Assembly (NCBI GenBank): GCA_028707125.1
Contig: JAQTUX010000002.1
Coordinates: 433,872 to 497,871, forward strand
Length of the DNA stretch: 64,000 bases
Direction of reading: 5' to 3'
From: Candidatus Omnitrophota bacterium
GTDB lineage: Bacteria; Omnitrophota; Gorgyraeia; Gygaellales; JAQTUX01
This document shows, piece after piece, positions 48,283 to 64,000 of the stretch (position 1 is its first letter; each line of letters starts with the position of its first letter). A model generated the notes under the pieces. The model worked only from the letters and a program-made list of their open reading frames with translations. It did no database searches and was not told the DNA's origin. The translations under genes and the position numbers were made by a program.

Positions 48283-48300
48283 TTCCTTTCGGCTTTCGGT
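48250..48300 (-). terminator. Hairpin (CCGAAAG…CTTTCGG / GAAAG-AAA-CTTTC) followed by T7 run on minus strand
   Basis: The minus strand reads '…ccgaaagccgaaaggaaatgatgaaagaaactttcggtttttttatt'. It lies ~170 nt downstream of the 532-aa gene stop and inside the first codons of pilin ORF 48064..48282. Confidence 0.4.
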
Positions 48301-48466
48301 AGCCCGGCCTACCTTGATAACAATGTTGTCAAGGTACCGTGGCTTTGCGCATCCCGGCTTACGCCGGGAATTGCCCTTTTCGCTGCCGTTCTACTTGCAC
48401 TTAAAATATACCATATATACTACTATATGTCAAGCGCAAAACTGCCTGAAATTGAAAGCGGTTACA

Positions 48467-50065
48467 TTATTGTGAGAACCAGAAACGGCGGCCGGTTTTA
48501 TCAACGCTATTTAGTTCGTTGGCGCGCTTAGAAAGATAGGCAATATCGTTGGTATGGCCTTGCGGCTGGAATTTGATGAGGTTGTATTTATCCTGTTGGA
48601 TCGATCTGCCGCGTAGTTTGAAAACCCGCTCCGTTATATCGTTTAAGGCAATCTTATCATAACCTATTGGCAATAAATGTGTTGCGCAATACTTTATCAG
48701 GCCCCAGCGCCAGGCCTTAAGCACGCTCTCAAAGGATAGCGCCTCAGGTATGTATCCCCTCTCCCCCTGCTTGCGCGTTTCCTCCGTCGAGAAAACATTC
48801 TTCAGGCCGAATGAGAAAAACTCGATCCTCTTGTTGAAATCATCCAGAGCATCCTTGAAATCAGGCCATTTGTTTAAATACGCCCGGGCAACGTCCTCTT
48901 TGCTTAACGACTCTTTATCCATATCTGTCAGCAACACAAGATAATACCTGTCCCGCGAGGCCTTCTTAATGAAAATGGCCCTTAACGTAACTAATTGATT
49001 TAGCTTATGTTGCGTGAATTGAGCCGTCCCTTCCGACAATACGATCTCCTCAAGATCGGGTCCTGGCCGGAAAAAAGACCCTTCTTTTTTATCCTCTAAG
49101 GCGATTTCGGAGGCGTATTGCCCTTCAGGCAGCCCTATTATAAAGTCGGTTTTAAGGCGCGGTATCTCGCAGGCGCTGCTTATCTCCTCTCTGCCAGAGG
49201 TGAAGAACGATATGTTTTTAACGTAGAGATGCGAGGGGAACTTACAGCAGCCGATGAAATCAAGCAGGCCTTGCGGCATCTTGCTCGCTAAGGGGGCGAT
49301 AAAGATAACAAACGGCTCTGTCTTGTTTATGAAGGTATTTTTTATATAAATCTCTGTATTGTAATATGTTGCGTAAAAATCTGACGGGATATTACCATAA
49401 GGCCAGATCGTCCTCGCGCTTGCGTCAATATATATTGAAGAGTCGTCTGATAACACAAATTTCAAATACTGCACCTCTCGGATACGCGGCATAAGCTCTT
49501 TGTATAACCTGAAATTGATTGCTGTATTATATTGCAATTGTTCAAGATAAGATACCAACCCCCCATAATCTATGCCGGCTCCTGTAAGGCGCTCAAACGT
49601 CTCTTTTATATAACTATTTGATTCGTAATCGTTTACGTCACCAAATAGGGAGATGTACAATAAAGTTTCCACGAGCGCCCTGATGTTTCCAGGGGCATTT
49701 TCGGCAGTGGTTTCTTGCAATAAATTCGTTATATAATCAACCCCTCCCAAAGTGTTTTCAATTGCCTTGAGCAAATATAGGCCCATATTCAATTCGCCTT
49801 CTTGAGGGAGTTTTGGGGGCTCCGGTTTTATCTCTGGCCTTATCTCAGGAAGGGGCGGCACAGGCGCCCCCTTCCTGCGCCTGCCAACAGGGCTGCTTAG
49901 ATTTAATTGTTTGATTATATTATTTACTGTGGACTTTGATATTGTCTTATTGAATCTCTGAGAAAGCGTAGCGGATATTTTCCTCGCGCTCAGGCCGGGG
50001 TTTTGCTTCTTAAGATCAGAAATGCTCTGTTTGAGCTCTTCAGTTACTTTGTAGATAACGCCCAT
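48467..50065 (-). CDS. Hypothetical 532-aa protein with N-terminal HTH-like segment
   Basis: Track ORF. The N-terminal '…LSARKISATLSQRFNKTISKSTVNNIIKQ…' resembles a helix-turn-helix, followed by a Pro/Lys-rich linker and a large unassigned domain. Confidence 0.55.
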   Translation of the reverse strand: MGVIYKVTEELKQSISDLKKQNPGLSARKISATLSQRFNKTISKSTVNNIIKQLNLSSPVGRRRKGAPVPPLPEIRPEIKPEPPKLPQEGELNMGLYLLKAIENTLGGVDYITNLLQETTAENAPGNIRALVETLLYISLFGDVNDYESNSYIKETFERLTGAGIDYGGLVSYLEQLQYNTAINFRLYKELMPRIREVQYLKFVLSDDSSIYIDASARTIWPYGNIPSDFYATYYNTEIYIKNTFINKTEPFVIFIAPLASKMPQGLLDFIGCCKFPSHLYVKNISFFTSGREEISSACEIPRLKTDFIIGLPEGQYASEIALEDKKEGSFFRPGPDLEEIVLSEGTAQFTQHKLNQLVTLRAIFIKKASRDRYYLVLLTDMDKESLSKEDVARAYLNKWPDFKDALDDFNKRIEFFSFGLKNVFSTEETRKQGERGYIPEALSFESVLKAWRWGLIKYCATHLLPIGYDKIALNDITERVFKLRGRSIQQDKYNLIKFQPQGHTNDIAYLSKRANELNSVDKTGRRFWFSQ

Positions 50066-50190: not shown

Positions 50191-50532
50191 TTACTGAAAG
50201 GTAATGACATCCCCTGTTTCAGTGCGGGTCTGGCGAGCAGTTCCGGAAGGAAGTTCTATGCAGTAATAAGCCCCAAGATAAATGCCAGAAAGGCGCCAGG
50301 GCTGGAGATCATGCAAAACCTTGATAACCCTGCCCTGCCTTGTGGTAAAGACAGCGTCAATGCTGAATTTCATAAAAAAGGTGTGAATGGAGGTGCAGGC
50401 GGCTATGACCAGGCCCTCTCCCTGATGAAGGGACGTCTTTCCCAAAAGCCCCTTCATGCGCGAAACCAGGGTATCGGCTAAGGCGGCGTTTTCTGCCAGA
50501 ACCGTGCCCTTACCCTGGTTGATTATTTTCAT
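50191..50532 (-). CDS. DUF192-family protein (commonly encoded in tad loci)
   Basis: 113-aa track ORF whose sequence pattern (…GLLGK…GEGLVI…CTSIHTFFMKFSIDAVF…) is typical of DUF192/COG1430. Confidence 0.7.
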   Translation of the reverse strand: MKIINQGKGTVLAENAALADTLVSRMKGLLGKTSLHQGEGLVIAACTSIHTFFMKFSIDAVFTTRQGRVIKVLHDLQPWRLSGIYLGAYYCIELPSGTARQTRTETGDVITFQ

Positions 50533-52691
50533 TACTGCTTGAAGAGGTTATCAGGGACTTCAACACCGTGGGACTTTATTTCCTCTATAAATGAAGGGAT
50601 ATATCCTGTGGGGATGTAGGTGCCGGTGATCCTTCCGTCCTTATCAAGCCCTGTCTGCTTGAATGTAAAAATGTCCGCCATATCAATATGCACGTCGTCC
50701 TTCATGCCGGTGATCTCGGTGATCTGCATGATCTTCCGGGAGCCGTCAGAAAGCCGCGCCGTATGCACGATTATATCAACTGCCGAGGCGATCATTTCGC
50801 GTATGGCGCGGATAGGCAGTTCTGCCCCGGACATCAGTATCATTGAATCAAGCCGGGAAAGGACATCGTGAGTGGAATTGGCGTGTATGGTGGTAAGCGA
50901 ACCGTCGTGGCCTGTGTTCATTGCCTGAAGCATATCCAGGGATTCCGGGCCGCGGCATTCGCCTATTATTACCCTATCAGGCCTCATTCTCAGGGTATTC
51001 CTGAAAAGCTCCCGTATGCTGATGCCGCCCTTGCCTTCTATATTGGGCGGCCTTGACTCAAGCCGCCCCCAATGCTCCTGGCGAAGCTTCAACTCTGCCG
51101 CGTCTTCAATGGTTATGATCCTCTCATTCTCCGGTATAAACTCGGAGAGCACATTCAAAACCGTGGTCTTGCCTGAGCCGGTTCCGCCGGACACTATCAG
51201 ATTCTTACGCACGATCACGCATATCTTTAAGAAATCCTTCATCTGTTCGCTTAAGGTGCCGAACCTCAGCAGATCATTGATATTGAACCTCTCTACGCCG
51301 AATTTCCTTATGGTAAGCATTGGCCCGGTAAGGGAAAGCGGCGGGATGATCGCGTTCACGCGGGAGCCGTCAGGAAGGCGCGCGTCCACCATGGGAGTGG
51401 ACTCGTCAATATGCCTGCCGAGAGGGGCGATTATCCTCTCAATGATCTGCCGGACCTGATCGTCCGAAAGAAACCTCTTGCTGGTCAATTCTATCCTGCC
51501 GCGCCTTTCTATATAGATCTGGTCCTTATTATTGACCATTATGTCGGTTATGTCTGGATCGCTGATAAGGTCTTCCAGCGGCCCTAACCCCAGCGCTTCA
51601 TCCGTGATCTCTTTTATAAGCCGCTTTCTAACCTCAAAACTGGAGAGGAATGCTCCGGTCTCGGCAGCCAGGGCGTTTGACACGGCCTTCTCGGTCTTCT
51701 CCTTTATCTGGCTCACCTTATTCGGATCGATCGTATTCAGATCAAGCCGTTTCAGATCCAATTCTTCTATGATACGCTGGTGCACCCTTTTCTTAAGGAT
51801 GATGACTTCGTCCCTCTCGGACTCTACTCTTTCCGCCAGGCGCAGCGGCTCAGCCAACCCCAGGCGCCGCCAGAAATCTCCTTCCTTGGCCAAAACAGAT
51901 TCTCTTGCCCTCTCCAGCGCCACCTCCTGGTGTTCAATGTACAGGTCCGCCTTCTCAACAAGGACCTTGCCCAGGCCCTTGATCACATTGCTTACCTTTG
52001 AGCGCGGGGCGTCAATTACGATGGGGACCCTTCTGTTCACGGAATAACCCACTGCCTTGCCTTCCGAGGGGATCTTGGCCAGTATCTCACAGGGAAGCGC
52101 TGCCCTTACCTCCTGCCAGGTAACACCCCCCACGCTCTCTGAACGGTTGAGGAGAAGCTTTACCATTTTCAGGGGGAAGTGCAGCGATTGCAGAACATCC
52201 AATGACCACTTGGTCTGATACACGGAAAGTATGTCGGGGGTAACCACCAGGAGGACAAGGTTTGACTGATTAAAGGCATAAAACAGCATCTCAGAAAAAC
52301 CCTTACCCACATCCATAATAACGTAGTCATATTCCTTATTGAGCATCGCGAAGACGTCGCTTATGTATTTTTCCTCAAGGTGCACGCTCTGGCGGGGGCG
52401 GGAGACCGCGGCAAGGAAATCAATTTTCAGATCGGGGAGTTTCAGCATAAACTCCCTTATAGACGCCACCGGCGGCTGTTTCTTAAGGCCGACTATCGCG
52501 TCAAGAAAGTTATACGACGGGCTTATGTTAAGCATGCGCGCCATATCTCCCGGCGCCTGAGTATCCAGGTCAAGCAGGGCGACCTTCTTGCCCTGGTCTT
52601 TTGCTATGCTTACGGCAAGATTGGCGGCGATAAGGGTTTTCCCTACCCCACCCTTAGTGGAGAAAATCGCGATTGTCTTAGCGGAAGGCAT
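50532..52691 (-). CDS. tadA: Fused TadZ/CpaE-like ParA-type ATPase domain + TadA/CpaF secretion ATPase (719 aa)
   Basis: The N-terminus 'IAIFSTKGGVGKTLIAANLAV' is a deviant Walker A of the MinD/ParA/CpaE type. The C-terminus 'IVSGGTGSGKTTVLN…' is a CpaF/VirB11-type Walker A, followed by the His-box region. Confidence 0.8.
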   Translation of the reverse strand: MPSAKTIAIFSTKGGVGKTLIAANLAVSIAKDQGKKVALLDLDTQAPGDMARMLNISPSYNFLDAIVGLKKQPPVASIREFMLKLPDLKIDFLAAVSRPRQSVHLEEKYISDVFAMLNKEYDYVIMDVGKGFSEMLFYAFNQSNLVLLVVTPDILSVYQTKWSLDVLQSLHFPLKMVKLLLNRSESVGGVTWQEVRAALPCEILAKIPSEGKAVGYSVNRRVPIVIDAPRSKVSNVIKGLGKVLVEKADLYIEHQEVALERARESVLAKEGDFWRRLGLAEPLRLAERVESERDEVIILKKRVHQRIIEELDLKRLDLNTIDPNKVSQIKEKTEKAVSNALAAETGAFLSSFEVRKRLIKEITDEALGLGPLEDLISDPDITDIMVNNKDQIYIERRGRIELTSKRFLSDDQVRQIIERIIAPLGRHIDESTPMVDARLPDGSRVNAIIPPLSLTGPMLTIRKFGVERFNINDLLRFGTLSEQMKDFLKICVIVRKNLIVSGGTGSGKTTVLNVLSEFIPENERIITIEDAAELKLRQEHWGRLESRPPNIEGKGGISIRELFRNTLRMRPDRVIIGECRGPESLDMLQAMNTGHDGSLTTIHANSTHDVLSRLDSMILMSGAELPIRAIREMIASAVDIIVHTARLSDGSRKIMQITEITGMKDDVHIDMADIFTFKQTGLDKDGRITGTYIPTGYIPSFIEEIKSHGVEVPDNLFKQ

Positions 52692-52700
52692 AGTTATTCT

Positions 52701-54311
52701 TCAGCGTCTTTTATAAACAATGGGGACGTCAACCCAGAGTTCTCCATCCTGGATCTGGGGCGGAAACGGAGGATAGGGGGACTGCGCTTTGGCAACGGAG
52801 ATCGAGGCGTCATCAATGATCTTGTAGCCGGATGACTCGGTTAATTTTATATCCCCGAGCCGGCCGTTACGCAGGATGCGAAGGCTTAATTTCACTACCC
52901 CTTCCCATCCCGCGTCGCGGGCAACCTTAGGATAATACACTGACCTGGATATCTTGGTCTGCACTGCCTTGACGTATTTGTACACATTTTCGTTGCCCAG
53001 AAAATATGAAGGAGAGACGATATCCGCCTCAAATGAGGCATCGCTCCTCTGCCGGGACATCCCCCCCTTGCGCAGGGAAAGATTGCCGATGTCCTCTTCC
53101 TTTATAACGTGAGGGGTAAGAGTGATCACCAGCTCCGTCTGGTTATTGGTAAAACTTTTTGACCTGAACAGAGCGCCTAAAACCGGCACATCTCCCAGGG
53201 CAGGCCACTTAGTCAAGGTATCGCTGTCTTTATTCTTAATTAAACCCGCCAGAAATACGGTCTGTCCGTCCTTAAGATATAGTTCGCTCTCCGCCTTGCG
53301 CGTGTCAAAGCCGGGTATGTTGATACCGCCTGCCGTTACTGAATTAGCGGTATTTATCTCGCTTACCTCCATTGTCAGCTGGGTAATGATCGCCTCGCTT
53401 TTTGTGTAAGTAGGCTTGATCTTCAAAGAGATACCTATATCCCTGTATTCCACATTAGTGGTAAAATTCTCTCCCAGCGTGCTGGTAGTGACAATGGGCA
53501 CCTCTCCGCCGACAAGGAACTCCGCCTCTTTACCGCTTAAACATACGAGTTTTGGCCGGGAAAGCACCCTGCCCTTGCCGCGCTTGATATACATGTTCAA
53601 TGCCGCGGTCACGTCTGTGCGGGTAAGGTAGCCGATCCTGAATGCCTCCGCCACCCTGTGGCTGAGCGGCTCTGTGGCTATGCCTTCAAAGGGGTTTTCC
53701 GTTACGGTTGTAAGCGGCTGGAGCGTCCAGCCGACGCCCAGATTATCGGCGTCGTCTATAGTCAACTCCAGGATCTGGACGTCTATCTCAATAGAGGTCT
53801 TTGACTCCTCGGTAATAACCGTGTTTACTACATATTGTTTCAAATCGCCCAATACGTAGTCAAGCTTCTCTTTTTCCGCTTCATTCACTACCTGTCCGCT
53901 CAGAAATACCTTCCTCTCATCCTCGTTTATCTTTGTCTGAACTTCGGAAAAACCCGTATCCGCGAGGACCCGCTTGATCCGCGCGTTAACCTGGTCCAGA
54001 TCCACGCTGAATACCTTCAGGCGGAAGGAGTGCTCGCCGAATTTATCCCAGTAAACAAAGGTGGTGGTGCCGTCCGCCTTAGCGTTCACTACTATATCTG
54101 TTTCAGTAACCTCGGCGACATCCGCCACAGCGGGATTACCGATCACCACCCGTGTCGGCTCTTGCGCTTCAAAATGCCTGACCTCATTCACCATCAGCAT
54201 TATCTCTTCAACGCCTTCTATCTCCCCTATATCAAACAATGCCGACGCGGGAGCGGGATGCGACAGTGCCAGTAAACCAACCAGGATAGGAACTAACAGC
54301 GCTTTTCTCAT
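52701..54311 (-). CDS. cpaC: CpaC/RcpA-type secretin with C-terminal TonB_C-like domain
   Basis: Signal peptide. Secretin core '…LVCLSGKEAEFLVGGEVPIVTTS…ISLKIKP…VFLAGLI…'. C-terminal 'YPKVARDAGWEGVVKLSLRILRNGRLGDIKLTESSGYKIIDDASISVAKAQ…PFP' resembles the TonB C-terminal domain. Confidence 0.8.
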   Translation of the reverse strand: MRKALLVPILVGLLALSHPAPASALFDIGEIEGVEEIMLMVNEVRHFEAQEPTRVVIGNPAVADVAEVTETDIVVNAKADGTTTFVYWDKFGEHSFRLKVFSVDLDQVNARIKRVLADTGFSEVQTKINEDERKVFLSGQVVNEAEKEKLDYVLGDLKQYVVNTVITEESKTSIEIDVQILELTIDDADNLGVGWTLQPLTTVTENPFEGIATEPLSHRVAEAFRIGYLTRTDVTAALNMYIKRGKGRVLSRPKLVCLSGKEAEFLVGGEVPIVTTSTLGENFTTNVEYRDIGISLKIKPTYTKSEAIITQLTMEVSEINTANSVTAGGINIPGFDTRKAESELYLKDGQTVFLAGLIKNKDSDTLTKWPALGDVPVLGALFRSKSFTNNQTELVITLTPHVIKEEDIGNLSLRKGGMSRQRSDASFEADIVSPSYFLGNENVYKYVKAVQTKISRSVYYPKVARDAGWEGVVKLSLRILRNGRLGDIKLTESSGYKIIDDASISVAKAQSPYPPFPPQIQDGELWVDVPIVYKRR

Positions 54312-55201
54312 TGCTCTCCCTTTCCGCCTGTCAGCGAAACGGTTTCCTTGCTAAGCCCTCTATATATCTCCACTTGCCTTGCCTGCGCCGGAGCCGTAGC
54401 TGCCTCCTGCGCCTTCTGGATCAACTCGGGATAGATATGCTGTAAGACCATATCCCAGCTTGCGGGCGGGGCCTTGGTAACCTTACTGTCCGCGGGCGAA
54501 CGCAATGACAGCCGGATCTTTCCCTGTTCATGCACAAAAGAGATCAGCGTGGCCTCTTCGGGGCTGACCGCTAGCGTTATAGGCGGGTTTGCCTGGGCGC
54601 TTGAACTCTCGCCGCGGGAGGTCTGCCCCCCTACCGCTAAAATAAGTATATTCTGGAACATCGTCATTGTGGTATTCTGGACGACCTGGTTGCCGTCAGG
54701 GCCGCGCATAGGTATGGGCACGTCTCCCAGCACATCTACATAGTCACCCGGCCGTATCATTCCGCCTACCGCGGCAATATTATCTATTATCAAAGTTATG
54801 GCGCGTTTTCCAGCCGGTGTCTTCATTGCCAGGGTAGTCTCATCTCCCGGCAGTTTGATCTTATTGCTCAGAATATGCTCGCCGCTGGATATATCCAGAG
54901 AGGCGATCTTGCCGATCGCGGCTCCCGTGTGGGTTAATGCCCTGGGCTGTATGGCTGACTTGGGAACCGATTCTACCTTAACGTCCCTCTCTTCTAAAAC
55001 CGTGCCGACGGAAATATCGCGCGCGGCAACAACGACATTAGAGTAATCTTCTTTCTGCGCCCGAGCCATACTCTTTAACCCCTCTTCTTTTTGCTTTATA
55101 TAAGTATTAATAAGCAAAACGGCAAGCGCGCCCGCGATTATGGCTATGGCCAGAGGCATATGTTTCTTGATACCGGAAACGCCAAGGGAGGGGATCGGCA
55201 T
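54308..55201 (-). CDS. cpaB: CpaB/RcpC Flp pilus assembly protein (SAF domain)
   Basis: 297 aa with an N-terminal TM segment and a SAF-like region. It overlaps the secretin start by 4 nt. Confidence 0.75.
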   Translation of the reverse strand: MPIPSLGVSGIKKHMPLAIAIIAGALAVLLINTYIKQKEEGLKSMARAQKEDYSNVVVAARDISVGTVLEERDVKVESVPKSAIQPRALTHTGAAIGKIASLDISSGEHILSNKIKLPGDETTLAMKTPAGKRAITLIIDNIAAVGGMIRPGDYVDVLGDVPIPMRGPDGNQVVQNTTMTMFQNILILAVGGQTSRGESSSAQANPPITLAVSPEEATLISFVHEQGKIRLSLRSPADSKVTKAPPASWDMVLQHIYPELIQKAQEAATAPAQARQVEIYRGLSKETVSLTGGKGEQ

Positions 55202-55206
55202 AAATA

Positions 55207-56127
55207 TTACTCCACCTTATCTTCGTACACTTCTATTTTGGACTTACTGGAAAGACCGCCTATCAATTCTTCGATCTTCTGTTGCTGCTTGAGGAACCTC
55301 AGGCCGTTCTTAATATCATCCCACATCTGCGCCAGCGAGCGCGTCTGTCCGCCTTTCTTCTCTTCTAATTTAATAATGTAGTAGCCGTCAGGGCCTTTAA
55401 AAATACTGCTGGTCTTGCCCTGCTCAAGCGTGGGCGAAAAAGCGACATCCTCAAACTCTTTGAATTTCTGGCCCGCGGCCACAAACCCTATATCTCCGCC
55501 GTTCGCGGCTGAAGAGTCCTTGGAAGAGTTTCTGGCTACCGTCGCGAAATCAACCCCCTGGAGCAGCTGGATCAAGGCCTGCTTCGCCTCATCTTCCCCC
55601 GCCGTGACGATTATCCTGAAACGCCTCTGCTCGGGCTCGCGCAGCTGCTCTTTGAACCTGTTATAGTACTCCTCTATCTCCTGCGAGGTCACGTCTATAT
55701 TGGCCGTCTCTTCCCTGACCAGCTCGGCGACCACGAGGTTCTGCTTCAATTTATTCAGCGCCACCTCTACCTCGGGGTTATCGTCAAGGTTTCTGGCCAT
55801 ACCCTCCTGATAGAGAAGCTCCCTTCTAACCAGTTCATTCCTGAGATAATCCAGTTTTTTATCCCGCGTATCTATCTTAAGCTCTGGCCTGTCCGCGGGG
55901 ACCAGGTTGTTGTAACCCGCAACCTCCTGATTTAAGTCCTCCAAGGTCACGAATGAATCGTTGACCTTGGCCGCGATGGTACCCTGGGGCTTAGCCGCCT
56001 TCGCTTCTGTTGTCTTTTTTTCTGCCCCGGCCTGCTTTTTTAAAAAGGGGATCTGGTCGCATCCCCACAACATAGCTGCTGATAAGATCACGAAAGAAAG
56101 AAAAACATGACTGCCCCTGCCCTTCAT
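55207..56127 (-). CDS. Parvulin-type peptidyl-prolyl cis-trans isomerase (SurA/PrsA-like), probable lipoprotein
   Basis: Signal peptide ending …AAMLWGC (atypical lipobox). A SurA-like chaperone N-region is followed by a PpiC domain ('…GGDIGFVAAGQ…FSP…GKTSSIFKGPDGYYIIKLEEK'). RBS GGAGGT 6 nt upstream. Confidence 0.7.
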   Translation of the reverse strand: MKGRGSHVFLSFVILSAAMLWGCDQIPFLKKQAGAEKKTTEAKAAKPQGTIAAKVNDSFVTLEDLNQEVAGYNNLVPADRPELKIDTRDKKLDYLRNELVRRELLYQEGMARNLDDNPEVEVALNKLKQNLVVAELVREETANIDVTSQEIEEYYNRFKEQLREPEQRRFRIIVTAGEDEAKQALIQLLQGVDFATVARNSSKDSSAANGGDIGFVAAGQKFKEFEDVAFSPTLEQGKTSSIFKGPDGYYIIKLEEKKGGQTRSLAQMWDDIKNGLRFLKQQQKIEELIGGLSSKSKIEVYEDKVE

Positions 56128-56313
56128 ATGATTACCTCCCCGTAAAAAGAAAAAGCCAGCCGGTAATTTTTACCGCGGTGCTGGCCGTCCTCATAAACAA
56201 TATCCTTTCTCATATCTTGTTTATATTCTATAACATAAATATAATAAGAGTGCAAGAAAAATTTTAATATAAATAAAAAACTTTTAAGAAGAGAAATATG
56301 GTATATAATCTTA
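56128..56313. promoter_or_regulatory. AT-rich divergent intergenic region with promoter-like elements for the minus-strand tad operon and the plus-strand glycosyltransferase cluster
   Basis: 186-bp AT-rich spacer between divergent genes containing several TATAAT/TATATA matches (e.g. 'ggtatataat' ~56,290). Confidence 0.4.
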
Positions 56314-58308
56314 GTGAAAATGGCTGACAGGTCTAAGTTCATAAAAAACACTGAGTTCGCGTTAGGGGCAGCCGCCCTTGCCTTTCTCTTCGCTCTTTTA
56401 TACCTGAATATGCTCATCCAGTCGCGCGATCCGGATATCTGGCTGCATCTTAAGACCGGAGAATATATTGTCCAGAACCGGGCTGTGCCGCAAGAAGACA
56501 TATTCTCCTCTACGGTATCCGGAAAAGAATGGATCGACCATTCCTGGCTTGTGCAGGTGATCTTCTATTCGGTATTTCATCTGTCGGGAATAAACAGCGT
56601 TGCCTCTCTCTGCGCCGTCATAGTCCTGCTTGCCTTTCTTTTCCTCTTTCTAAGCACCTACGAGCAGCGCGAGTATTTGGTCTTAAGCGTACTCATGCTG
56701 ACAATAACGCTCCTGGCCTCGCTTATAAGGTTCAACCTGAAACCGGAAAACTTCTCCCTTCTGTTTTTTGCTATTTATCTATACATATTAAGGAAGCATC
56801 CGCATAATAAAATCGTCTTCATCCTGCCCCTGATACAGGTTATCTGGGCAAACTGCCACGGATTCTTTATATTGGGCCCTCTTTTATTGTTGATATTTAT
56901 CGTCGCGGAAAAGACAAAACGACATCTGTGGCCGGTCTTCCTGCTGGCCTGCGCCGCGTCTTTCCTGACCCCATACGGTTATAAAGGGGTGCTGTATCCC
57001 TTCACCATAATATTAGGATCCACAGGAAAGATCGGCATATTTTATAAACATATAATCGAGCTTCTGCCCACCTGGCAATTAGGCCCGCGGGCGTTCCTGC
57101 CGTATCTTGCTTTGATCATAATCTCTCTATTCTCATTTTTACTAAATCATAAAAAACTTAATCCCGCCTATATTATAATCTGGCTGTCGCTTTTGGGCAT
57201 ATCGCTCAGGATCAACCGGAATGTCATCTTCTTCAACTTCGCGGCCTGCCTATTCACCGTGGATAATATCAGGGCATTTTGGGAAAAGGAAGGCCCTAAA
57301 TTCTCCCGGGGCATTCCGGGCAAAGCCATCTCTGCATCTAAATATATCCTGATCATCTTTACAGCCGGCTGGCTGCTGCAAAAGAACGCGGCCATATTAA
57401 ATAATAACCCGTATTATTATATCTCCGCAAGGGACTGCCCTGATAAAGCGGCTGAGTTCATCCTGAAAGAAGGCCTGCCGGAAAATATATTCAACGTCTT
57501 CAACCACGGTTCCTATTTTATCTATAAACTGTTCCCGCGGGAAAGGGTCTTTATTGACGGAAGGACCGAATTATACGGCGGAGGGTTCTTTGAGGACTAC
57601 CAGAAAATACTTAATATCAATGAGCCGGCGATAAATAACCTGCTTGAGCGATACAAGATAAATACGGTCATATTAAGCGACAACTTGCCTACGGTATCCG
57701 GCCTGATGGCATACCTCTATCGCAGGCCGGACTGGGCCCTGGTCTATTTTGATGAAGACGCGCTGATATTCTTAAGAAATAACGAACGAAACAAAGCGCT
57801 TATCAGCCGGCTGAAAGTTGATTTAAATAACCGGCCGGTTACAAAGACGGGCCTCTCCGCTACGCACGCAAGATTTGCCTGGATGTTTTATTATCTGGGC
57901 CTTAAGGAACAGGCAATAAACGAGGCCAAAGAGGCATTAAAAATATGGGAGAGGTCTGCGGATGCCTATAATGTCCTGGGCAGGATCTATACCGCGCAAA
58001 AGCGCTACGCAGAGGCATTGGAAAATCTGCGCCTTGCCCGCGCCTATGCTCCGTCTAATATGGAAACCCTCATCGGCCTTGGCGATCTTTATATGGAAAA
58101 AAGAGAGTATGCCGAGGCGATACGGATATACAAAAAACTGGTTGATCTCTACCCTTATAAATCTGAACCACATTATCTGTTAGGAAAGGGTTACCACGCG
58201 GCAAATAACCTGAAGGCGGCTATCAAATCCCTGAAGAAGGCAGTCGGATTAAATCCCTACAAGGATAAATATCATAAAGAACTTGTACGGGTCTATAATA
58301 AAGGATAG
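56314..58308 (+). CDS. Polytopic membrane GT-C-like glycosyltransferase (PMT/ArnT-like architecture) with C-terminal TPR repeats
   Basis: 664 aa (GTG start at 56314 or ATG at 56320). About 11 TM helices with extracytoplasmic loops, then >=3 TPR repeats. Family assignment is by architecture only. Confidence 0.5.
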   Translation: MKMADRSKFIKNTEFALGAAALAFLFALLYLNMLIQSRDPDIWLHLKTGEYIVQNRAVPQEDIFSSTVSGKEWIDHSWLVQVIFYSVFHLSGINSVASLCAVIVLLAFLFLFLSTYEQREYLVLSVLMLTITLLASLIRFNLKPENFSLLFFAIYLYILRKHPHNKIVFILPLIQVIWANCHGFFILGPLLLLIFIVAEKTKRHLWPVFLLACAASFLTPYGYKGVLYPFTIILGSTGKIGIFYKHIIELLPTWQLGPRAFLPYLALIIISLFSFLLNHKKLNPAYIIIWLSLLGISLRINRNVIFFNFAACLFTVDNIRAFWEKEGPKFSRGIPGKAISASKYILIIFTAGWLLQKNAAILNNNPYYYISARDCPDKAAEFILKEGLPENIFNVFNHGSYFIYKLFPRERVFIDGRTELYGGGFFEDYQKILNINEPAINNLLERYKINTVILSDNLPTVSGLMAYLYRRPDWALVYFDEDALIFLRNNERNKALISRLKVDLNNRPVTKTGLSATHARFAWMFYYLGLKEQAINEAKEALKIWERSADAYNVLGRIYTAQKRYAEALENLRLARAYAPSNMETLIGLGDLYMEKREYAEAIRIYKKLVDLYPYKSEPHYLLGKGYHAANNLKAAIKSLKKAVGLNPYKDKYHKELVRVYNKG

Positions 58309-58311
58309 GAT

Positions 58312-59073
58312 ATGCTGGAAGGGAAAAAGATTATCGTAGTTCTACCGGCATTTAACGCATCCGGGACGCTAAAGAAGACATACGAGGACATCCCCGAAGG
58401 CATTGTAGATCAAGTCCTATTAATAGACGACTATAGCTCCGATAATACCGTAGAAATCGCCAGGAAGTTAGGCATTGAGGTCTTTGTCCACGAAAAAAAC
58501 AAAGGGTACGGAGCTAACCAGAAAACCTGCTATAAGGAGGCATTAAGAAAAGGGGCGGATATTATAATTATGCTGCACCCTGATTACCAATATCCCCCGC
58601 GGCTCATAACTGCCATGGCAGGGCTTATATGTTCGGGGATATTTGATATCGTGCTCGGCTCAAGGATACTGGGCGGAACGGCCCTTAAGGGCGGCATGCC
58701 GTTATACAAATATGTTGCTAATAGGACGGGGACATTCATAGAGAATCTCATGTTAGGGCAAAAGTTATCCGAATACCATACCGGCTACAGGGCCTTTGCC
58801 AAAGAGGTACTGCTGAACCTTCCCCTGCTTGAGAATTCCGATGATTTTGTGTTTGATAACCAGATCATCGCCCAATCCGTTTATTTCGGCTACCGCATCG
58901 GAGAAATAACCGCCCCTTCCCGATATACAAATGAATCTTCATCTATCTCTTGCATAAGAGGCATAAAATATGGTATAGAGGTAATGATAACTGCCTTGAA
59001 ATTCCTGCTGCAGAAACATTCTGTGGCTAAGTTCCGTATTTTTAATAAAGATGGGGGGAAGCTCCTGCAATAA
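58312..59073 (+). CDS. GT2-family glycosyltransferase, polyprenol-phosphate sugar synthase (Dpm1/GtrB-like)
   Basis: 'IVVLPAFNASGTL…LLIDDYSSDNT…' DxD-containing GT-A fold with a C-terminal amphipathic tail. There is a 4-nt gap after the GT-C gene. Confidence 0.75.
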   Translation: MLEGKKIIVVLPAFNASGTLKKTYEDIPEGIVDQVLLIDDYSSDNTVEIARKLGIEVFVHEKNKGYGANQKTCYKEALRKGADIIIMLHPDYQYPPRLITAMAGLICSGIFDIVLGSRILGGTALKGGMPLYKYVANRTGTFIENLMLGQKLSEYHTGYRAFAKEVLLNLPLLENSDDFVFDNQIIAQSVYFGYRIGEITAPSRYTNESSSISCIRGIKYGIEVMITALKFLLQKHSVAKFRIFNKDGGKLLQ

Positions 59074-59205
59074 CATAACGGCCAGGCCCTGCCTTCTGAT
59101 ATGTTTCCTCGTGCTGATCGCTTCCTAATATGGCTGAATATCATAAGGAACTGGGACGGGTTTACGAAATAACCCTCGATCCCGGTATGGCCACCGAGAA
59201 ATCCG

Positions 59206-61557
59206 ATGACGCACCAACCCGCTAATCAGATCTCAAGACTCTTCTATTCCGGCATATTTATTCTTAGTTTTTGTCTGTTAGCACTGGAAATCCTGCTAAC
59301 CAGAATTCTCAGCGTAATATTCTGGTATCATTTTGCATTCTTAGTGATATCGGTTGCTATGTTCGGAATGACAACCGGCGCTCTTATTATATATCTTATT
59401 CCAAAGGCCTTCTCGCCTCATTTAACCCAAAAACATATAGCGCTTTATGCCTATCTCGGTTCTTTCGCTGTTGCCATAAGCCTGCTGTCTTTATTTTACC
59501 TGCCGGCGCTATTTGCCTTGCTAAATGCCTCCGGCATGCTTCTGCCGGTATTGTATATTTTGCTATCCCTGCCGTTTATAGCTATTGGCATATGCCTATC
59601 TTTGGGCCTTACAAGATTTCCCGAACATACGGGAAAGATCTACAGCATAAATCTTATTGGCTCTGCCCTGGGTTGTATCGGCATAATCTTTATCTTAAAT
59701 ACCCTCAACGCGCCTTCGGCCGTATTATTCATCGCCTTCCTCTCAGTATTAGCGGCCCTGCTATTTGCTTTTAGCGCGGGGATGGGTAGAATATTCAAGC
59801 TTTTATGTATCTTCACACTCCTGTCGGCATATGCCCTTTGCCTAAGAAATGAGTATTATAATCATATAAGGCCTCTATGGGTAAAGGGTGAAATACGCGA
59901 GAGGCCGCCCTTATACAGCAAATGGAACTTCTTCTCCTACATAACTGTTGATACACCATCAAGAAAACCTTTTGGCTGGGGATTCAGCTCAAAAATATCC
60001 TCAGCTGAAATTAATACGCAGGAGTTAATGCTGCTTATCGATGAGGGTGCCGGAACGGTCTTGACCAAGTTCAATAAACTCTCGGATTTAGAATATCTTA
60101 AATTGGACGTCTCTGCCATAGCATACTATCTGGGCCACAATGAAGATGTGCTTGTATTGGGCTCCGGAGGGGGAAGAGATCTATTGACCGCCGCGCTCTT
60201 TGGGGCAAAAAAGGTCGTGGGGGTAGAAATAAACAAAGATATAAATGAAACCGCTTTTAATAAACTTAAAGATTTTTCGGGAAAGATAAACGATTGTGGC
60301 CAAATACAATTAGCAGTGGATGAAGGTAGAAGTTACGTCTCAAGGTCTAAAGAAAAATACGATATTATACAGGCCTCCTTAGTCGATTCTTTCGCGGCTT
60401 TCGCGAATGGGGCTTTTGCCCTCACGGAAAACGGCCTCTACACGAAAGAGGCATGGGTTATTTTCCTGGAACATTTAAAGGAGAAAGGTATTTTAACGTT
60501 TTCCAGATGGTACGACATGAACAATCCTTCAGAAATATACAGGTTGATCTCGTTGGCAAGAACTGCCTTGCAGGAAATAGGCATAAAAGACCCGAGGCAA
60601 AATATTGTCCTAGTCCGCTACCTGTGGCCCGGAAGCAACTTGGGTGTGGGAACGATCCTGGTAGGAAAAAATCCTTTCTCGGATTCAGAGTTGGCGACTT
60701 TGGAGAATATAACCGATGATTTAGAATTTGAACTGGTTTTATCATCGAAGGTATCTAAGGACAGCAATTTTATTTCCATCCTGGAAGGCGCTCCCTATCT
60801 CTTTTTAAACATCAGCCCCCCCACGGACAACAAGCCGTTTTTCTTTTATTTCGCTGAGTTCCGCGACCTTTTTTCAAAGAATATATCTGATCAAGGAATA
60901 ATCGTCCTAAGAAAGACCTTCTTCAGTATATTAATCTTTGGGACAATCTTTATTTTGATACCGTTGATATGCAGACCGCGCCATAAAGAAAACAACCCGG
61001 TATCTGTAAATATGTTGGTCTATTTTGCTTCGATTGGTTTGGGGTTTATGCTGATTGAAATACCTTTAATGCAAAGATTGGGGATATTCCTGGGACAGCC
61101 CATTTATGGATTGACCATTGTTTTATGCTCTTTACTCTTTTCTTGCGGCATAGGCAGTTATTTAACAAAATATTGCAAAAGTAACGCTAAAAAGATATTG
61201 CCGTTTTTGGTATTATTACTAGTTACTTCTATTTTACTGAATTTATTACCCTTGGTCATTAAACTGGCTACTCCCGCCCCTATACCTATAAAAATAATCT
61301 TATCTCTTTCGGCTGTAATTCTAATCGGTTTGTTTATGGGCATGCCTTTCCCCATAGGGATGGCAAATGCCGGAGGAGAGGATGCGTCGCGCGTACTTTA
61401 CTGGGGAGTAAACGGTTTTACTTCTGTTTGCGGTTCTGCCCTGGCTGCGGTTATATTGATCAATTTCGGTTTCCAAAAAGCCCTTATAGCAGGCGCTATA
61501 TGTTATCTAATAGCCCTCTTATCGCTATTGCCTACTTTAAAAAAATCCGCCGCTTAA
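59206..61557 (+). CDS. Membrane protein with spermidine-synthase-like (Rossmann methyltransferase-fold) domain flanked by multi-TM regions
   Basis: 783 aa. The N-terminal ~7 TM segment is followed by the central motif 'VLVLGSGGGRDLLTAALFGAKKVVGVEINKDI' and a C-terminal multi-TM region. Confidence 0.55.
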   Translation: MTHQPANQISRLFYSGIFILSFCLLALEILLTRILSVIFWYHFAFLVISVAMFGMTTGALIIYLIPKAFSPHLTQKHIALYAYLGSFAVAISLLSLFYLPALFALLNASGMLLPVLYILLSLPFIAIGICLSLGLTRFPEHTGKIYSINLIGSALGCIGIIFILNTLNAPSAVLFIAFLSVLAALLFAFSAGMGRIFKLLCIFTLLSAYALCLRNEYYNHIRPLWVKGEIRERPPLYSKWNFFSYITVDTPSRKPFGWGFSSKISSAEINTQELMLLIDEGAGTVLTKFNKLSDLEYLKLDVSAIAYYLGHNEDVLVLGSGGGRDLLTAALFGAKKVVGVEINKDINETAFNKLKDFSGKINDCGQIQLAVDEGRSYVSRSKEKYDIIQASLVDSFAAFANGAFALTENGLYTKEAWVIFLEHLKEKGILTFSRWYDMNNPSEIYRLISLARTALQEIGIKDPRQNIVLVRYLWPGSNLGVGTILVGKNPFSDSELATLENITDDLEFELVLSSKVSKDSNFISILEGAPYLFLNISPPTDNKPFFFYFAEFRDLFSKNISDQGIIVLRKTFFSILIFGTIFILIPLICRPRHKENNPVSVNMLVYFASIGLGFMLIEIPLMQRLGIFLGQPIYGLTIVLCSLLFSCGIGSYLTKYCKSNAKKILPFLVLLLVTSILLNLLPLVIKLATPAPIPIKIILSLSAVILIGLFMGMPFPIGMANAGGEDASRVLYWGVNGFTSVCGSALAAVILINFGFQKALIAGAICYLIALLSLLPTLKKSAA

Positions 61558-61561
61558 ATAA

Positions 61562-61636
61562 TAGCCCCAACCGGATTTGAACCGGTGTTTAAAGGCTGAG
61601 AACCTTCCGTCCTGGACCAGGCTAGACGATGGGGCC
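61562..61636 (-). tRNA. tRNA-Glu (anticodon CUC)
   Basis: Minus-strand sequence GGCCCCATCGTCTAGCCTGGTCCAGGACGGAAGGTTCTCAGCCTTTAAACACCGGTTCAAATCCGGTTGGGGCTA folds as a cloverleaf. The D-arm is almost identical to E. coli tRNA-Glu. The anticodon loop is TTCTCAG and the T-loop GGTTCAAATCC. No CCA is encoded. Confidence 0.8.
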
Positions 61637-61656
61637 AAGAGGCCAAAGTTTTTATT

Positions 61657-61684
61657 ATTTTAACAGACGCGACTACTTAGTCAA
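61657..61684 (-). promoter_or_regulatory. Sigma70-like promoter for tRNA-Glu (-35 TTGACT, 16-nt spacer, -10 TAAAAT)
   Basis: Revcomp of 61679-61684 = TTGACT and revcomp of 61657-61662 = TAAAAT. The tRNA 5' end is ~20 nt downstream. Confidence 0.4.
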
Positions 61685-61701
61685 TATAAAATAAGAGGGC
61701 G

Positions 61702-64000
61702 CTACTTGCGGATCTTGATCAGGCCTGACTCTTTCCAGCCGGAATCATCGCCATTTTTGTCAATTGCCCGCAGGAATACTTTTTTACGTATGTTGCGGCC
61801 GCCATTGTTCACAAACCGCAAAGATAATACCATTTGCAACATCCTGCCGGACTCTTTCATCTCCCCTAATGCACCAGCCCAGTTAATTAAAAGTATCTCT
61901 CCTGAAGAATACAATCTCTTCTCTGATACATTATATCTAAGTTGGGCCCCTGAGTTGCCCTGAGGGCTATCTCCGATAAACAGATACACATCCTGCAGGT
62001 CCTGCCAGCCGGCATTATCAAGATAAGTGGCTGTAAGCGTCAAGTCTTCTCCTGAGCGAACCATCTCCCAGTCAGGAGAAAGCCCTCCTATGCGCGGCAC
62101 AGAGCGCACAAACTCAGACCTTGCGGAAACTGTAACGCTGATGGGCTCTTGGGAAACATCGGATTCGTTATAAAAGGTTATGGTGCCGGCATTCAAAGTG
62201 GAGGAAAGCTGTTTTCTATCAATCGAAATTTTAACCGGAGCTGATGCCTGAGAGAATACTTGGATACGATTATTGCCTGCATCACTGATATACATATTAC
62301 CTAAAGTGTCGACGGCTATATCATTTGGTTGCTTGAATTCCCCTTCCCACGTTCCCCACCTTCCAAAATAAAATAATGAATTGCCATCTTGGTCAAATTT
62401 ATAAATTTCGCCGTTATCAAGCACCAAATAAACAAAACTATGTGAATCACAGGCAATTCCCGTTATATCTATGTTATTTTCCCATGGTTTAATCCTGTCG
62501 TTTAATTGGTCAAGCGTCCAATTGTCAATCAAATCTCCATCCTGATTTAATACTGCGAGACCAAAATAGCGATCGTTGGAGTGGCCGCGGTTATAAGCAG
62601 CGTAAATGATATCTTGGGAGGTTATAGCTATCGCATAAGGCCTAGTGAACATATCCCATTCCTCTATAACGTCGCCCTTTGAGTCATATTTAATGAGAAA
62701 CTCGCCAGACTCTGGATCAGAGATATACATATTATTCTCGGAATCGATAGCAATATTTTCTACTCGGCCGTCTTGACCGTGAAACTGATTATTTAAAACT
62801 ATCTCTTTGATCAAATTACCTTCGTTATCAAACTTGAATACATTCCGAAAATAAGGAATATATATATTATTCTCTAAATCCAAAGTTATATCATCGCTTA
62901 TTACTGATGGAATAGCCACAGACCATTCCTTGACTTTGACAAGCCCGCCTTTTATACCAAATTTTTGGATAAGCAAATCTTCTGCAGACGTGTTCTGTGC
63001 GGACCCGATGTAAATATTGCCCTTTTTATCAACATCTAACCATAACGGACCATTATAAAATATATCCCCTGACTGCTTATTATAACTTCCCCACTCAGCA
63101 ATAATCCTGCCTTGAGAATTAAACTTAAGGATTTTTGTATTGAGCTCATCAGGTGTTGAATACGGACACATATATATATTACCATCTTCGTCTATTGCCA
63201 CATCTCCTGTATAATGCAAGTGAAAATCTATATAATTGCCTGAGAAATCGACAATGTTCCAACCGGAAGAAGACTGAATAAGGCGGCCTTCAGTGTCAAA
63301 CTTACCTAAGAATCGTTTGTGCTCATGACCTATATAAATTACATCTTTAGAATCTATGGCAAAAACTTCGCCATATTGATAATCGCTGCTATTATGATTG
63401 GGATTGCTGGTTTCAAATCCCCATCGCTTCATATAATTTCCGTCTGAATCAAATTTCCAAATTCTCATATAATGATTATCGGCTATGTATATATAATCTC
63501 CAGAATCAATAACTATGCCTATAGGCTGGCCATAATAGCCTAATGTCGCACGAAAACTCCCCCAGCGTTTAATATAATTTCCATTTTTACCAAATTTATG
63601 CACGCAAAAGTTCTCATAATCAGTTACGTAGATATTATCTTGAGAATCAACAGCTATATCATATGGCTTCCAACTGGATCCGGGCTTAAAACTTGTAATA
63701 AAATTGCCGTTTCTATTAAATTTTTTAATCCTTGCTTGATCATTATAATAATAGTTATAATCAGTCACTACATAGAAATTATTCTCGGAATCAAAAGCAA
63801 TATGATGAGGATAATAAACATAGCTGTTACTTGATGGATTGTCATTCCCTACTTCAAGTATAAATTCACCATATTTGTTAAACTTTTTTATGCGCTTATG
63901 ATAAGTATCAACCACATAGATATATCCCTCGTGATCGACTCCAATACTGTGCGGATGGCTGAAATACCATGGATTCGGCAACTTTGGCCACATATTGGAA
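61702..64000 (-). CDS. NHL-repeat beta-propeller protein (>=763 aa; N-terminus may extend beyond window end)
   Basis: Repeated '…YIYV(A/T)D..N.RI.KF…G…' NHL-like blades, e.g. 'GNNRIQVF'. The track ORF runs 61702..63993. Confidence 0.7.
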   Translation of the reverse strand, partial: SNMWPKLPNPWYFSHPHSIGVDHEGYIYVVDTYHKRIKKFNKYGEFILEVGNDNPSSNSYVYYPHHIAFDSENNFYVVTDYNYYYNDQARIKKFNRNGNFITSFKPGSSWKPYDIAVDSQDNIYVTDYENFCVHKFGKNGNYIKRWGSFRATLGYYGQPIGIVIDSGDYIYIADNHYMRIWKFDSDGNYMKRWGFETSNPNHNSSDYQYGEVFAIDSKDVIYIGHEHKRFLGKFDTEGRLIQSSSGWNIVDFSGNYIDFHLHYTGDVAIDEDGNIYMCPYSTPDELNTKILKFNSQGRIIAEWGSYNKQSGDIFYNGPLWLDVDKKGNIYIGSAQNTSAEDLLIQKFGIKGGLVKVKEWSVAIPSVISDDITLDLENNIYIPYFRNVFKFDNEGNLIKEIVLNNQFHGQDGRVENIAIDSENNMYISDPESGEFLIKYDSKGDVIEEWDMFTRPYAIAITSQDIIYAAYNRGHSNDRYFGLAVLNQDGDLIDNWTLDQLNDRIKPWENNIDITGIACDSHSFVYLVLDNGEIYKFDQDGNSLFYFGRWGTWEGEFKQPNDIAVDTLGNMYISDAGNNRIQVFSQASAPVKISIDRKQLSSTLNAGTITFYNESDVSQEPISVTVSARSEFVRSVPRIGGLSPDWEMVRSGEDLTLTATYLDNAGWQDLQDVYLFIGDSPQGNSGAQLRYNVSEKRLYSSGEILLINWAGALGEMKESGRMLQMVLSLRFVNNGGRNIRKKVFLRAIDKNGDDSGWKESGLIKIRK

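Follow-up and report, generated by a model that had tools for sequence, protein, structure and literature searches.

A gene cluster encoding a GT-C-fold protein, a GT2-type protein and a SpeE-fold membrane protein lies divergent from a Tad operon in Candidatus Omnitrophota

The DNA analyzed here is a stretch of 64,000 nucleotides (nt) from a Candidatus Omnitrophota bacterium, hereafter called the window. Coordinates are positions within this window unless another locus is named, and L-numbers are our analysis labels for the loci with which it was compared. The window carries three co-directional open reading frames (ORFs) on the + strand, genes A, B, and C, which diverge from a five-gene Tad pilus operon (Table 1). 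An earlier note, made from the sequence alone, described a three-gene cluster divergent from a tad/giant operon, and the ORFs and their - strand neighbors confirm this arrangement. Pfam searches likewise confirmed the domains that the note had named, namely a tetratricopeptide repeat (TPR) tail on A, Glycos_transf_2 in B, and a Spermine_synth-like core in C. The gap between the stop of A and the start of B is 3 nt, and that between B and C is 132 nt. Because each of the three has hundreds to thousands of significant homologues, we regard them as real genes rather than chance ORFs. We tentatively propose, while judging it slightly short of an even chance, that A and B, perhaps with C, constitute an extracytoplasmic glycosylation operon serving the neighboring Tad and giant-protein export apparatus.

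The product of gene A is 100% identical to a protein annotated at NCBI as "tetratricopeptide repeat protein" from a Candidatus Omnitrophica metagenome-assembled genome (MAG). Our gene model uses a GTG start at 56314; the NCBI model begins at the ATG at 56320 and gives 662 amino acids (aa). The only Pfam matches of the protein are to TPR_2, TPR_19, and TPR_16 over residues 530 to 662, and a full-length profile searched against PDB sequences returned TPR proteins only. Further information came from an AlphaFold model built with 51 homologues (predicted local distance difference test [pLDDT] score, 92.2; predicted template modeling [pTM] score, 0.90). When this model was searched with Foldseek, the best non-TPR matches were all GT-C enzymes, with E values of 2.7e-8 to 2.7e-6 and template modeling (TM) scores of about 0.5. 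Yeast STT3 (8age_A; E value, 2.7e-8; TM score, 0.53) led these matches, which also included AglB (5gmy and 3wak), human STT3A/B, and DPY19 (7zli).

Helix boundaries in the model and family-wide counts of lysine and arginine in the loops predict 11 transmembrane helices with the N terminus inside. The N-terminal tail is rich in Lys and Arg, and the first outer loop is acidic. A long outer loop with two short helices joins helices 7 and 8, and the last helix is followed by a predicted periplasmic alpha/beta domain of 160 residues and then by the TPR tail. This tail is placed outside the membrane because the number of helices is odd and the N terminus is inside.

Conservation in the A family is concentrated on the same side of the membrane. 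Within the membrane domain, D41, W43, H45, D62, R139, Q175, W178, N180, H182, E249, and R302 are invariant (the first three across all 51 homologues), and D39 and N303 are nearly so, with D39 kept in at least 90% of the 51. The alpha/beta domain adds D415, G416, R417, E419, and Y421, all within the segment FIDGRTELYG. Every invariant polar residue is predicted to lie on the periplasmic side. The motif D[IL]WLHLK[TA]G is specific enough to retrieve at least 583 relatives of A from genomes, mostly labeled Omnitrophota, and the family as a whole comprises 32,728 clusters at 50% identity (E ≤ 1e-3) and extends to Elusimicrobiota and Nitrospinota. We file gene A as a GT-C protein by predicted fold and topology, in an uncurated family. 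Because of this fold, this topology, and the outward-facing conserved residues, we read it as a putative periplasm-facing glycosyltransferase.

Assignment to a known GT-C family was less successful. The earlier note called gene A a PMT/ArnT-like GT-C protein with a TPR tail; the predicted GT-C fold and periplasmic TPR tail stand, and the PMT, PMT_2, or ArnT label does not, with Pfam, PDB, and hhalign all yielding nothing for it. The note's suggested assignment by hidden Markov models (PMT_2/GT39 or GT83) found no Pfam match at E ≤ 10. We accordingly rejected membership in GT39 and GT83, for which there was no PF02366/PF13231-type match and for which an hhalign comparison with two PMT-family proteins from related loci gave a probability of 0.1%, at the low sensitivity that comes with having a single sequence on one side. 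Membership in GT66 (STT3/PglB/AglB) was also rejected. Gene A has no WW dipeptide and hence no WWDxG motif, and it has no STT3 Pfam match, such that the likeness is structural only.

Gene B encodes a protein without a transmembrane helix that matches Pfam Glycos_transf_2 (2.6e-20). Its best PDB match is the Pyrococcus Dol-P-Man synthase (5mlz; 7.9e-10), followed by ArnC, and its best NCBIfam matches are AglJ, PpgS, and Dol-P-hexose transferase (55 to 64 bits versus cut-offs of 325 to 375). These neighbors agree with the earlier description of B as a Dpm1/GtrB-like GT2 protein. Polyprenyl-phosphate GT2 enzymes carry the segment D-A-D-L-Q-x-P-P, and gene B carries the similar segment H89-P-D91-Y-Q93-Y-P-P. 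It is reasonable but not proven that B is a polyprenyl-phosphate GT2 enzyme of the DPM1/GtrB/ArnC/PpgS/AglJ type, with a predicted lipid-linked product.

Gene C was modeled by AlphaFold (pLDDT, 89; pTM, 0.89) as seven helices, a SpeE-like domain, and seven further helices. All 50 of the top 50 Foldseek matches are aminopropyltransferases, including 1uir (3.9e-8), which bears out the earlier description of a spermidine-synthase-like fold between membrane domains. At the sequence level the likeness is faint. The Pfam Spermine_synth match (6.5e-5) is barely at threshold, and the NCBIfam SpeE models TIGR00417, NF002010, and NF002956 score 23 to 31 bits versus cut-offs of 250 to 472, or about 10-fold under, as is likewise the case for SpeE-family scores in 40 of 41 homologues. 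Profile positions 22 to 194 of NF002956 align with residues 603 to 772, and the C-terminal bundle duplicates the bundle type that PRK03612 membrane SpeE proteins carry at the N terminus. The central domain shares the fold of SpeE/PRK03612 proteins, including the N-terminal beta-hairpin part, and a seven-helix bundle homologous to the PRK03612 N terminus is also present. Unlike those proteins, gene C has a second such bundle, a domain predicted to be periplasmic, and changes at two key positions. The G-x-G-G-G-R-D loop, E341, D372, and D394 are retained, whereas a HMMER alignment with 1uir places G322 at the SpeE gatekeeper acid (G-G-G-(D/E)-G) and S391 at the first Asp of D-x-x-D, of which only the second Asp (D394) remains.

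Averaged over 41 homologues, the short loops of C on the N-terminal side hold 1.3 to 2.8 Lys plus Arg residues, and those on the side of the domain hold 0 to 0.7. Because the domain-side loops are poor in Lys and Arg, the positive-inside rule predicts a periplasmic location for the SpeE-fold domain. The evidence argues against C being a spermidine synthase, since two aminopropyltransferase signature acids are lost, the family scores are low, and a periplasmic location is predicted for the domain. The family has members across phyla, with more than 2,391 homologues. The NCBI protein for C (732 aa) starts 51 codons after the ATG at 59206 and loses the first transmembrane helix. This model appears truncated (omitting 59206 to 59358), because R33, S36, F45, and S49 lie upstream of the NCBI start and are invariant in 41 homologues.

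To place the cluster in a wider context, the neighbors of A-family genes were clustered in 81 loci, 97 copies were examined, and a neighbor-joining tree was used to compare them. The commonest setting, shared by about 62 of the 97 copies, is a housekeeping block without pilus genes, in the order pgk-tpiA-secG-SBP_bac_5-two permeases-two ABC ATPases-A (often in tandem)-glgC-fabV/acd-etfB-etfA-smc. Most Omnitrophota carry the A-family gene in this block (A-family genome loci L010 to L083), where its place directly after the Opp/Dpp-like importer is constant. Velamenicoccus archaeovorus LiM shows the core-type context alone, at L039. A lies beside or within a Tad locus, in varied orientation, at 11 independent loci (the window, L004, L005, L008, L009, L026, L032, L033, L040, L167, and L168), and these copies occupy two branches of the tree. 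It is divergent from the peptidyl-prolyl isomerase (PPIase) gene in the window; co-directional with and immediately upstream of that gene in L008, L026, L032, L033, and L040; convergent on DUF192-TadA in L004 and L167; and flanked by the pilin array and the DUF192-TadA block in L005, L009, and L168. The five-gene Tad block adjoins A or C homologues in L004, L008, L009, L026, L032, L040, L084, L167, and L170 and is partial in L033 and L168, which are cut off by the end of the contig. Thus, the linkage that the earlier note proposed to look for exists, at 11 A loci and 3 C loci, whereas most A copies sit in the housekeeping block. Linkage to Tad is real for a subset of the A family and not for the whole family.

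Glycosyltransferase genes recur beside A. The order in L171 is c21-A-GT2(GT2_TM_C)-PMT family-radical SAM-GT2-GT4-GT4, and L089 repeats c21-A-GT2 and has a second GT2 gene. L167 has PMT_2-GT2/methyltransferase-c21-A, and in L004 a GT2 gene and two genes for polytopic proteins stand upstream of c21-A. The repeated pairing of A with DPMS/GtrB-type GT2 genes (in the window, L089, and L171) supports a putative lipid-monophosphate sugar donor. The small gene c21 encodes 129 to 149 aa with about four hydrophobic helices and immediately precedes A in many relatives, overlapping or abutting its start. The c21 protein has no Pfam match, and the gene is absent from the window; we considered it as a GtrA-like flippase and set that assignment aside on both counts. 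It is possible that c21 encodes a partner subunit or flippase of A.

C is found beside a Tad locus at three loci (the window, L084, and L170). Its orthologues in the latter two (68 to 76% identity) adjoin the PPIase gene. In L084, C is directly upstream of PPIase-CpaB-secretin-TadA-DUF192, and the A copy of this MAG sits at L010, in the core context. The C gene of L170 diverges from the PPIase gene and takes the slot that A has in the window. C is divergent from c21-A-GT2 in L089 and L171 and is followed there by a module of FIST, histidine kinase, and GGDEF response regulator genes, which also flanks Tad operons in L004, L026, L033, L040, L084, and L170. The commonest neighbor of distant C-family genes, seen at 38 of 81 metagenome loci (L087 to L166), encodes a protein-L-isoaspartate O-methyltransferase (PCMT) of about 257 aa (PF01135; 1.9e-64) with a signal-peptide-like N terminus, as in L126:176-949. 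Such pairs would be predicted to place two S-adenosylmethionine (SAM)-fold domains outside the cytoplasm.

The Tad operon beside the cluster is followed along the - strand by nine pilin-like genes with class III signals, a TadG-like gene, two TadB/C genes, and then a giant ORF (2 to 38341, - strand) that encodes more than 12,780 aa and runs off the window. The giant protein begins with a Sec-type signal-peptide-like segment, MFIDWRKKIWIKAVALLVVAVFLPEQVSWA, and the pilin-like proteins have G/Q-x-T-x-E-Y class III signals. Given these signals, both the pilins and the giant protein are expected to cross the periplasm. Over all nine pilins there are 11 N-x-S/T sequons versus 6.5 expected. The pilin encoded at 47121 to 47582 (- strand) has 6 versus 1.7 expected by shuffling, and the other eight are without enrichment. 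That pilin also holds the run NPVNNTTTTNTTINAT and a C-terminal ANRTINGT. We considered N-glycosylation of the pilins and dropped it, because the sequon enrichment is too weak as support.

Several further features of the region were recorded. A c-di-GMP-I riboswitch aptamer (RF01051; 53.5 bits versus a gathering score of 35) at 48295 to 48385 on the - strand sits between a gene resembling helix-turn-helix proteins (48467 to 50065) and the first pilin-like gene (48064 to 48282), and it thereby heads the unit formed by the pilin array, the TadG-like gene, the TadB/C genes, and the giant ORF. Together with the FIST-histidine kinase-GGDEF module of relatives, this element suggests that expression of the pilus and the giant protein is under c-di-GMP control. 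Two fusions in the Tad operon are kept in related loci: a single 719-aa ATPase with CpaE/MinD-like and TadA domains and a 536-aa secretin with a C-terminal TonB_C domain. GC content steps down from about 0.52 in the Tad operon to 0.44 in A-B-C and 0.38 in an NHL beta-propeller gene (61702 to 63993). These steps and the tRNA-Glu gene may mark an island boundary or a composition effect of membrane proteins. A promoter and terminator scan of positions 55900 to 61900 gave match counts equal to those for shuffled sequence. Because promoter-like matches are no commoner than in shuffled sequence, we claim no promoter in the intergenic region between A and the PPIase gene.

Table 1. Features of the A-B-C cluster and the adjoining Tad operon, with positions of c21 in related loci
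Feature	Position	Strand	Basis
Intergenic region, AT-rich, between the divergent PPIase gene (-) and gene A (+)	56128-56313		sequence read
Gene A, 664-aa GT-C-fold membrane protein (predicted) with periplasmic alpha/beta domain and TPR tail	56314-58308	+	ORF, model
Gene A residues 1-364, membrane domain, 11 predicted transmembrane helices, cytoplasmic N terminus	56314-57405	+	predicted structure, loop Lys/Arg
Gene A residues 39-45, DPDIWLH, DxD-W-H motif at start of first periplasmic loop; candidate catalytic/metal site	56428-56448	+	conservation
Gene A residues 365-524, predicted periplasmic alpha/beta domain with invariant FIDGRTELYG	57406-57885	+	predicted secondary structure
Gene A residues 525-664, four to five TPR repeats, predicted periplasmic	57886-58305	+	Pfam
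Gene B, 253-aa soluble GT2 protein, DPMS/GtrB/ArnC/PpgS type; candidate polyprenyl-phosphate sugar synthase	58312-59073	+	Pfam, PDB, NCBIfam
Gene C, 783 aa, seven transmembrane helices, SpeE-fold domain, seven transmembrane helices	59206-61557	+	ORF, model
Gene C residues 1-218, N-terminal seven-helix transmembrane bundle	59206-59859	+	AlphaFold helices
Gene C residues 219-562, SpeE-like Rossmann domain, predicted periplasmic	59860-60891	+	positive-inside rule, model
Gene C residues 563-783, C-terminal seven-helix transmembrane bundle	60892-61554	+	AlphaFold helices, NCBIfam NF002956
tRNA-Glu(CTC), bounding the cluster 3 nt after the gene C stop	61561-61637	-	ARAGORN, Rfam
Divergent Tad operon, five genes	50191-56127	-	Pfam, NCBIfam
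PpiC-type PPIase	55207-56127	-	Pfam, NCBIfam
CpaB/RcpC	54308-55201	-	Pfam, NCBIfam
Secretin fused to TonB_C	52701-54311	-	Pfam, NCBIfam
CpaE-TadA fusion ATPase	50532-52691	-	Pfam, NCBIfam
DUF192	50191-50532	-	ORF
c21, in related loci	L004:5544-5969, L005:9577-10011, L026:8077-8508, L033:7857-8288, L089:9271-9705, L167:3767-4168, L169:9548-9997		

In the glycosylation scheme that we tentatively favor, gene B would load one sugar from a nucleotide sugar onto undecaprenyl phosphate at the cytoplasmic face, as its family resemblance suggests. The lipid-linked sugar would then have to cross to the periplasmic leaflet, and either the twin seven-helix bundles of C or the small four-helix protein encoded ahead of A in relatives are candidates for the flippase. 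There, A would take the lipid-linked sugar as donor, with residues D39-x-D41, H45, R139, N180/H182, E249, and R302 predicted to face the periplasm. Its alpha/beta domain and TPR tail might select a protein acceptor. Protein acceptors that pass through the periplasm are proposed because of the TPR tail and the recurrent embedding of A in Tad loci, and these could be the nine pilins with class III signals and/or the giant protein with its Sec signal on their way to the Tad machine. We infer these acceptors from gene neighborhood alone. C might serve as an accessory membrane enzyme through its predicted periplasmic SpeE-fold domain. Literature searches on Flp pilin glycosylation with a glycosyltransferase, and on membrane-bound or spermidine-synthase-like proteins with glycosyltransferases, returned nothing relevant.

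The two-step logic of this scheme has precedent. In the GtrA/GtrB/GtrC, ArnC/ArnT, and PpgS/Rv3779 systems, a cytoplasmic GT2 enzyme loads polyprenyl phosphate and a polytopic GT-C enzyme transfers the sugar outside; the acceptors are O-antigen, lipid A, and arabinogalactan rather than proteins. The A-B pair would share this division of labor, and B, like PpgS, has no membrane anchor. In contrast to those systems, no GtrA- or ArnE/F-type flippase is encoded here, and A falls outside the GtrC, ArnT, and Rv3779 families. A parallel for the proposed acceptors is TfpW, an arabinosyltransferase of the GT-C class whose gene adjoins pilA in group IV strains of Pseudomonas aeruginosa; using a polyprenyl-phosphate sugar, it modifies Ser/Thr of the pilin in the periplasm. 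Both TfpW and A are encoded at a pilus locus, A as a predicted GT-C protein, but the TfpW pilus is type IVa rather than Tad, and TfpW is not known to have a TPR tail.

Among structural neighbors, STT3, AglB, and DPY19 are the closest to the A model. STT3/AglB/PglB proteins share with A a soluble extracytoplasmic domain after the last transmembrane helix that holds an invariant short motif (FIDGRTELYG in A). They and DPY19 have 13 transmembrane helices rather than the 11 predicted for A, which also lacks their sequence hallmarks. A further difference from oligosaccharyltransferases is that the GT2 gene adjacent to A suggests a monosaccharide-phosphate donor instead of a pyrophosphate-linked oligosaccharide.

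The architecture most like that of A belongs to the animal TMTC O-mannosyltransferases (GT105), which combine 11 transmembrane helices and an acidic pair in the first outer loop with an array of lumenal TPRs (PMC7801869). TMTC1-4 and A agree in helix number, cytoplasmic N terminus, a conserved acidic pair opening the first extracytoplasmic loop, a long outer loop with short surface helices between helices 7 and 8, and a C-terminal extracytoplasmic TPR array. Gene B extends the parallel, as TMTC enzymes use Dol-P-Man, the product of a DPM1-type GT2 enzyme. The two differ in that A has a D-x-D motif followed by W-x-H where TMTC proteins have DD, has an extra 160-residue alpha/beta domain between helix 11 and the TPRs, and is bacterial. 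There is also no detected sequence similarity, and the DUF1736 model (PF08409) of Pfam has no match to gene A. Hence, the comparison holds for architecture and predicted topology.

A number of results weigh against the proposal of a glycosylation operon dedicated to the Tad apparatus. Gene A has no sequence link to a curated GT-C family: Pfam found nothing in residues 1 to 529 at E ≤ 10 and only TPR families in 42 distant homologues, a profile of the membrane domain gave only chance-level matches to PDB sequences (for example, ND4L at an E value of 0.09), and the low-sensitivity hhalign comparison described above was negative. The NCBIfam scores of gene B are far under every cut-off, and His89 replaces the first Asp in the D-A-D segment of DPMS. 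The locus encodes no flippase from a known family. As for the acceptors, Ser plus Thr averages 11% in the giant ORF and exceeds 35% in 1 of 254 overlapping 100-residue segments (near residue 8800), so the long S/T-rich linkers of the earlier note were overstated; the pilins, at 7 to 19%, are not notably rich either. Four relatives of A from the window clade (L002, L006, L007, and L169) adjoin leuS and an apurinic/apyrimidinic endonuclease gene, and no Tad genes neighbor the distant C-family genes of other phyla. Finally, the housekeeping block is the main home of A, and orthologues of B (61 to 64% identity) have a Wzy_C gene as neighbor and lie about 8 kb away from core-type copies of A, a setting that suggests a general envelope role.

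These last two points also underlie the strongest rival explanation, which is that the genes form a general envelope glycosylation operon whose placement beside Tad is incidental or lineage specific. Its target would be a housekeeping component of the periplasm or outer membrane, either protein or glycan/lipid, as for ArnT, EmbC, and Rv3779. This view accommodates the near-universal presence of the A family in Omnitrophota, its reach into other phyla, and its often tandem copies in the housekeeping block. It also fits the L171 island, whose GT4, GT2, and radical-SAM genes are typical of polysaccharide synthesis, as well as the lower GC content of A-B-C relative to the Tad operon and the tRNA gene at which this stretch ends. 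We nevertheless consider it possible but rather doubtful, because 11 A loci and 3 C loci abut or interrupt Tad genes in differing orientations, with the A copies drawn from two branches of the tree and with A separating the pilin array from the TadA operon in three of them. Chance placement is hard to credit given that Tad genes occupy some 1 to 2% of such genomes by a rough estimate that was not computed.

Alternatively, A could be mainly a structural assembly factor, with a TPR tail acting like TadD, PilW, or Tgl (secretin assembly, pilotin) and with a polytopic domain that is an anchor devoid of transferase activity. The Tad locus of the window contains no other TPR protein, and thus no TadD equivalent; the tail weakly matches the NCBIfam models for Tgl (1.9e-8) and PilW (1.6e-7); and A is co-directional with and directly upstream of PPIase-CpaB-secretin in five species. 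These matches reflect generic TPR similarity, however (34 bits versus a cut-off of 225). Moreover, conservation is strongest in the periplasmic loops of the membrane domain (D41, H45, R139, N180, H182, E249, and R302) and not in the TPRs, a pattern that fits an active site rather than an anchor, and most A-family members have no Tad genes nearby. We therefore find this explanation very unlikely. Least probable of all, in our estimation, is that C really is a membrane-bound enzyme that makes spermidine or polyamine for the cell surface, in a cluster functionally unrelated to glycosylation. Spermine_synth and SpeE models are the sole matches of C, and its structural neighbors are uniform, but the bit scores are low, the acid that selects decarboxylated SAM (dcSAM) has become Gly322, the first Asp of D-x-x-D has become Ser391, the predicted location of the domain is the periplasm, and the neighborhood has no speD-like gene. 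dcSAM is made in the cytoplasm and is not known to occur in the periplasm. A bolder, though unlikely, idea is that C represents an undescribed enzyme class in which a periplasmic SAM- or dcSAM-type Rossmann domain is supplied with cofactor or lipid-linked substrate by the seven-helix bundles and which, with A, would form a station decorating the Tad pilins and giant surface proteins of predatory or parasitic Omnitrophota. If so, the frequent pairing, in other phyla, of C-family genes with signal-peptide PCMT genes would point to adenosyl-cofactor-dependent protein chemistry outside the cytoplasm.

Overall, the glycosylation reading of the earlier note is supported in part, by the predicted GT-C fold of A, the GT2 class of B, and Tad linkage in a subset of relatives, and not in its PMT/ArnT membership or in family-wide linkage to Tad. 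The logic that combines GT2 and GT-C enzymes is already known. What is new is the uncurated families, the recurrent linkage to Tad and giant genes, and the architecture of C. Gene A belongs to a very large family combining a predicted GT-C fold with TPRs that has no Pfam model and is annotated merely as "tetratricopeptide repeat protein," and it would be a bacterial architectural counterpart of the animal TMTC enzymes. C belongs to a widespread family of proteins of about 800 residues for which the SpeE annotation is probably misleading.

Omnitrophota are ultra-small and probably predatory or parasitic, with a Tad-like system and giant proteins thought to mediate host attachment (PMC10066038; bioRxiv 10.1101/2023.11.21.568195). 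A Tad-like system in which a Rotamase_2 PPIase precedes giant genes is already described for the phylum, and the papers checked by a term search mention neither a TPR-tailed membrane glycosyltransferase nor a membrane protein resembling SpeE at these loci. Should A, B, and C modify the pilins or the giant protein, surface glycosylation would join the attachment machinery of these organisms, and D39 and D41 of A would offer an experimental handle on this process.

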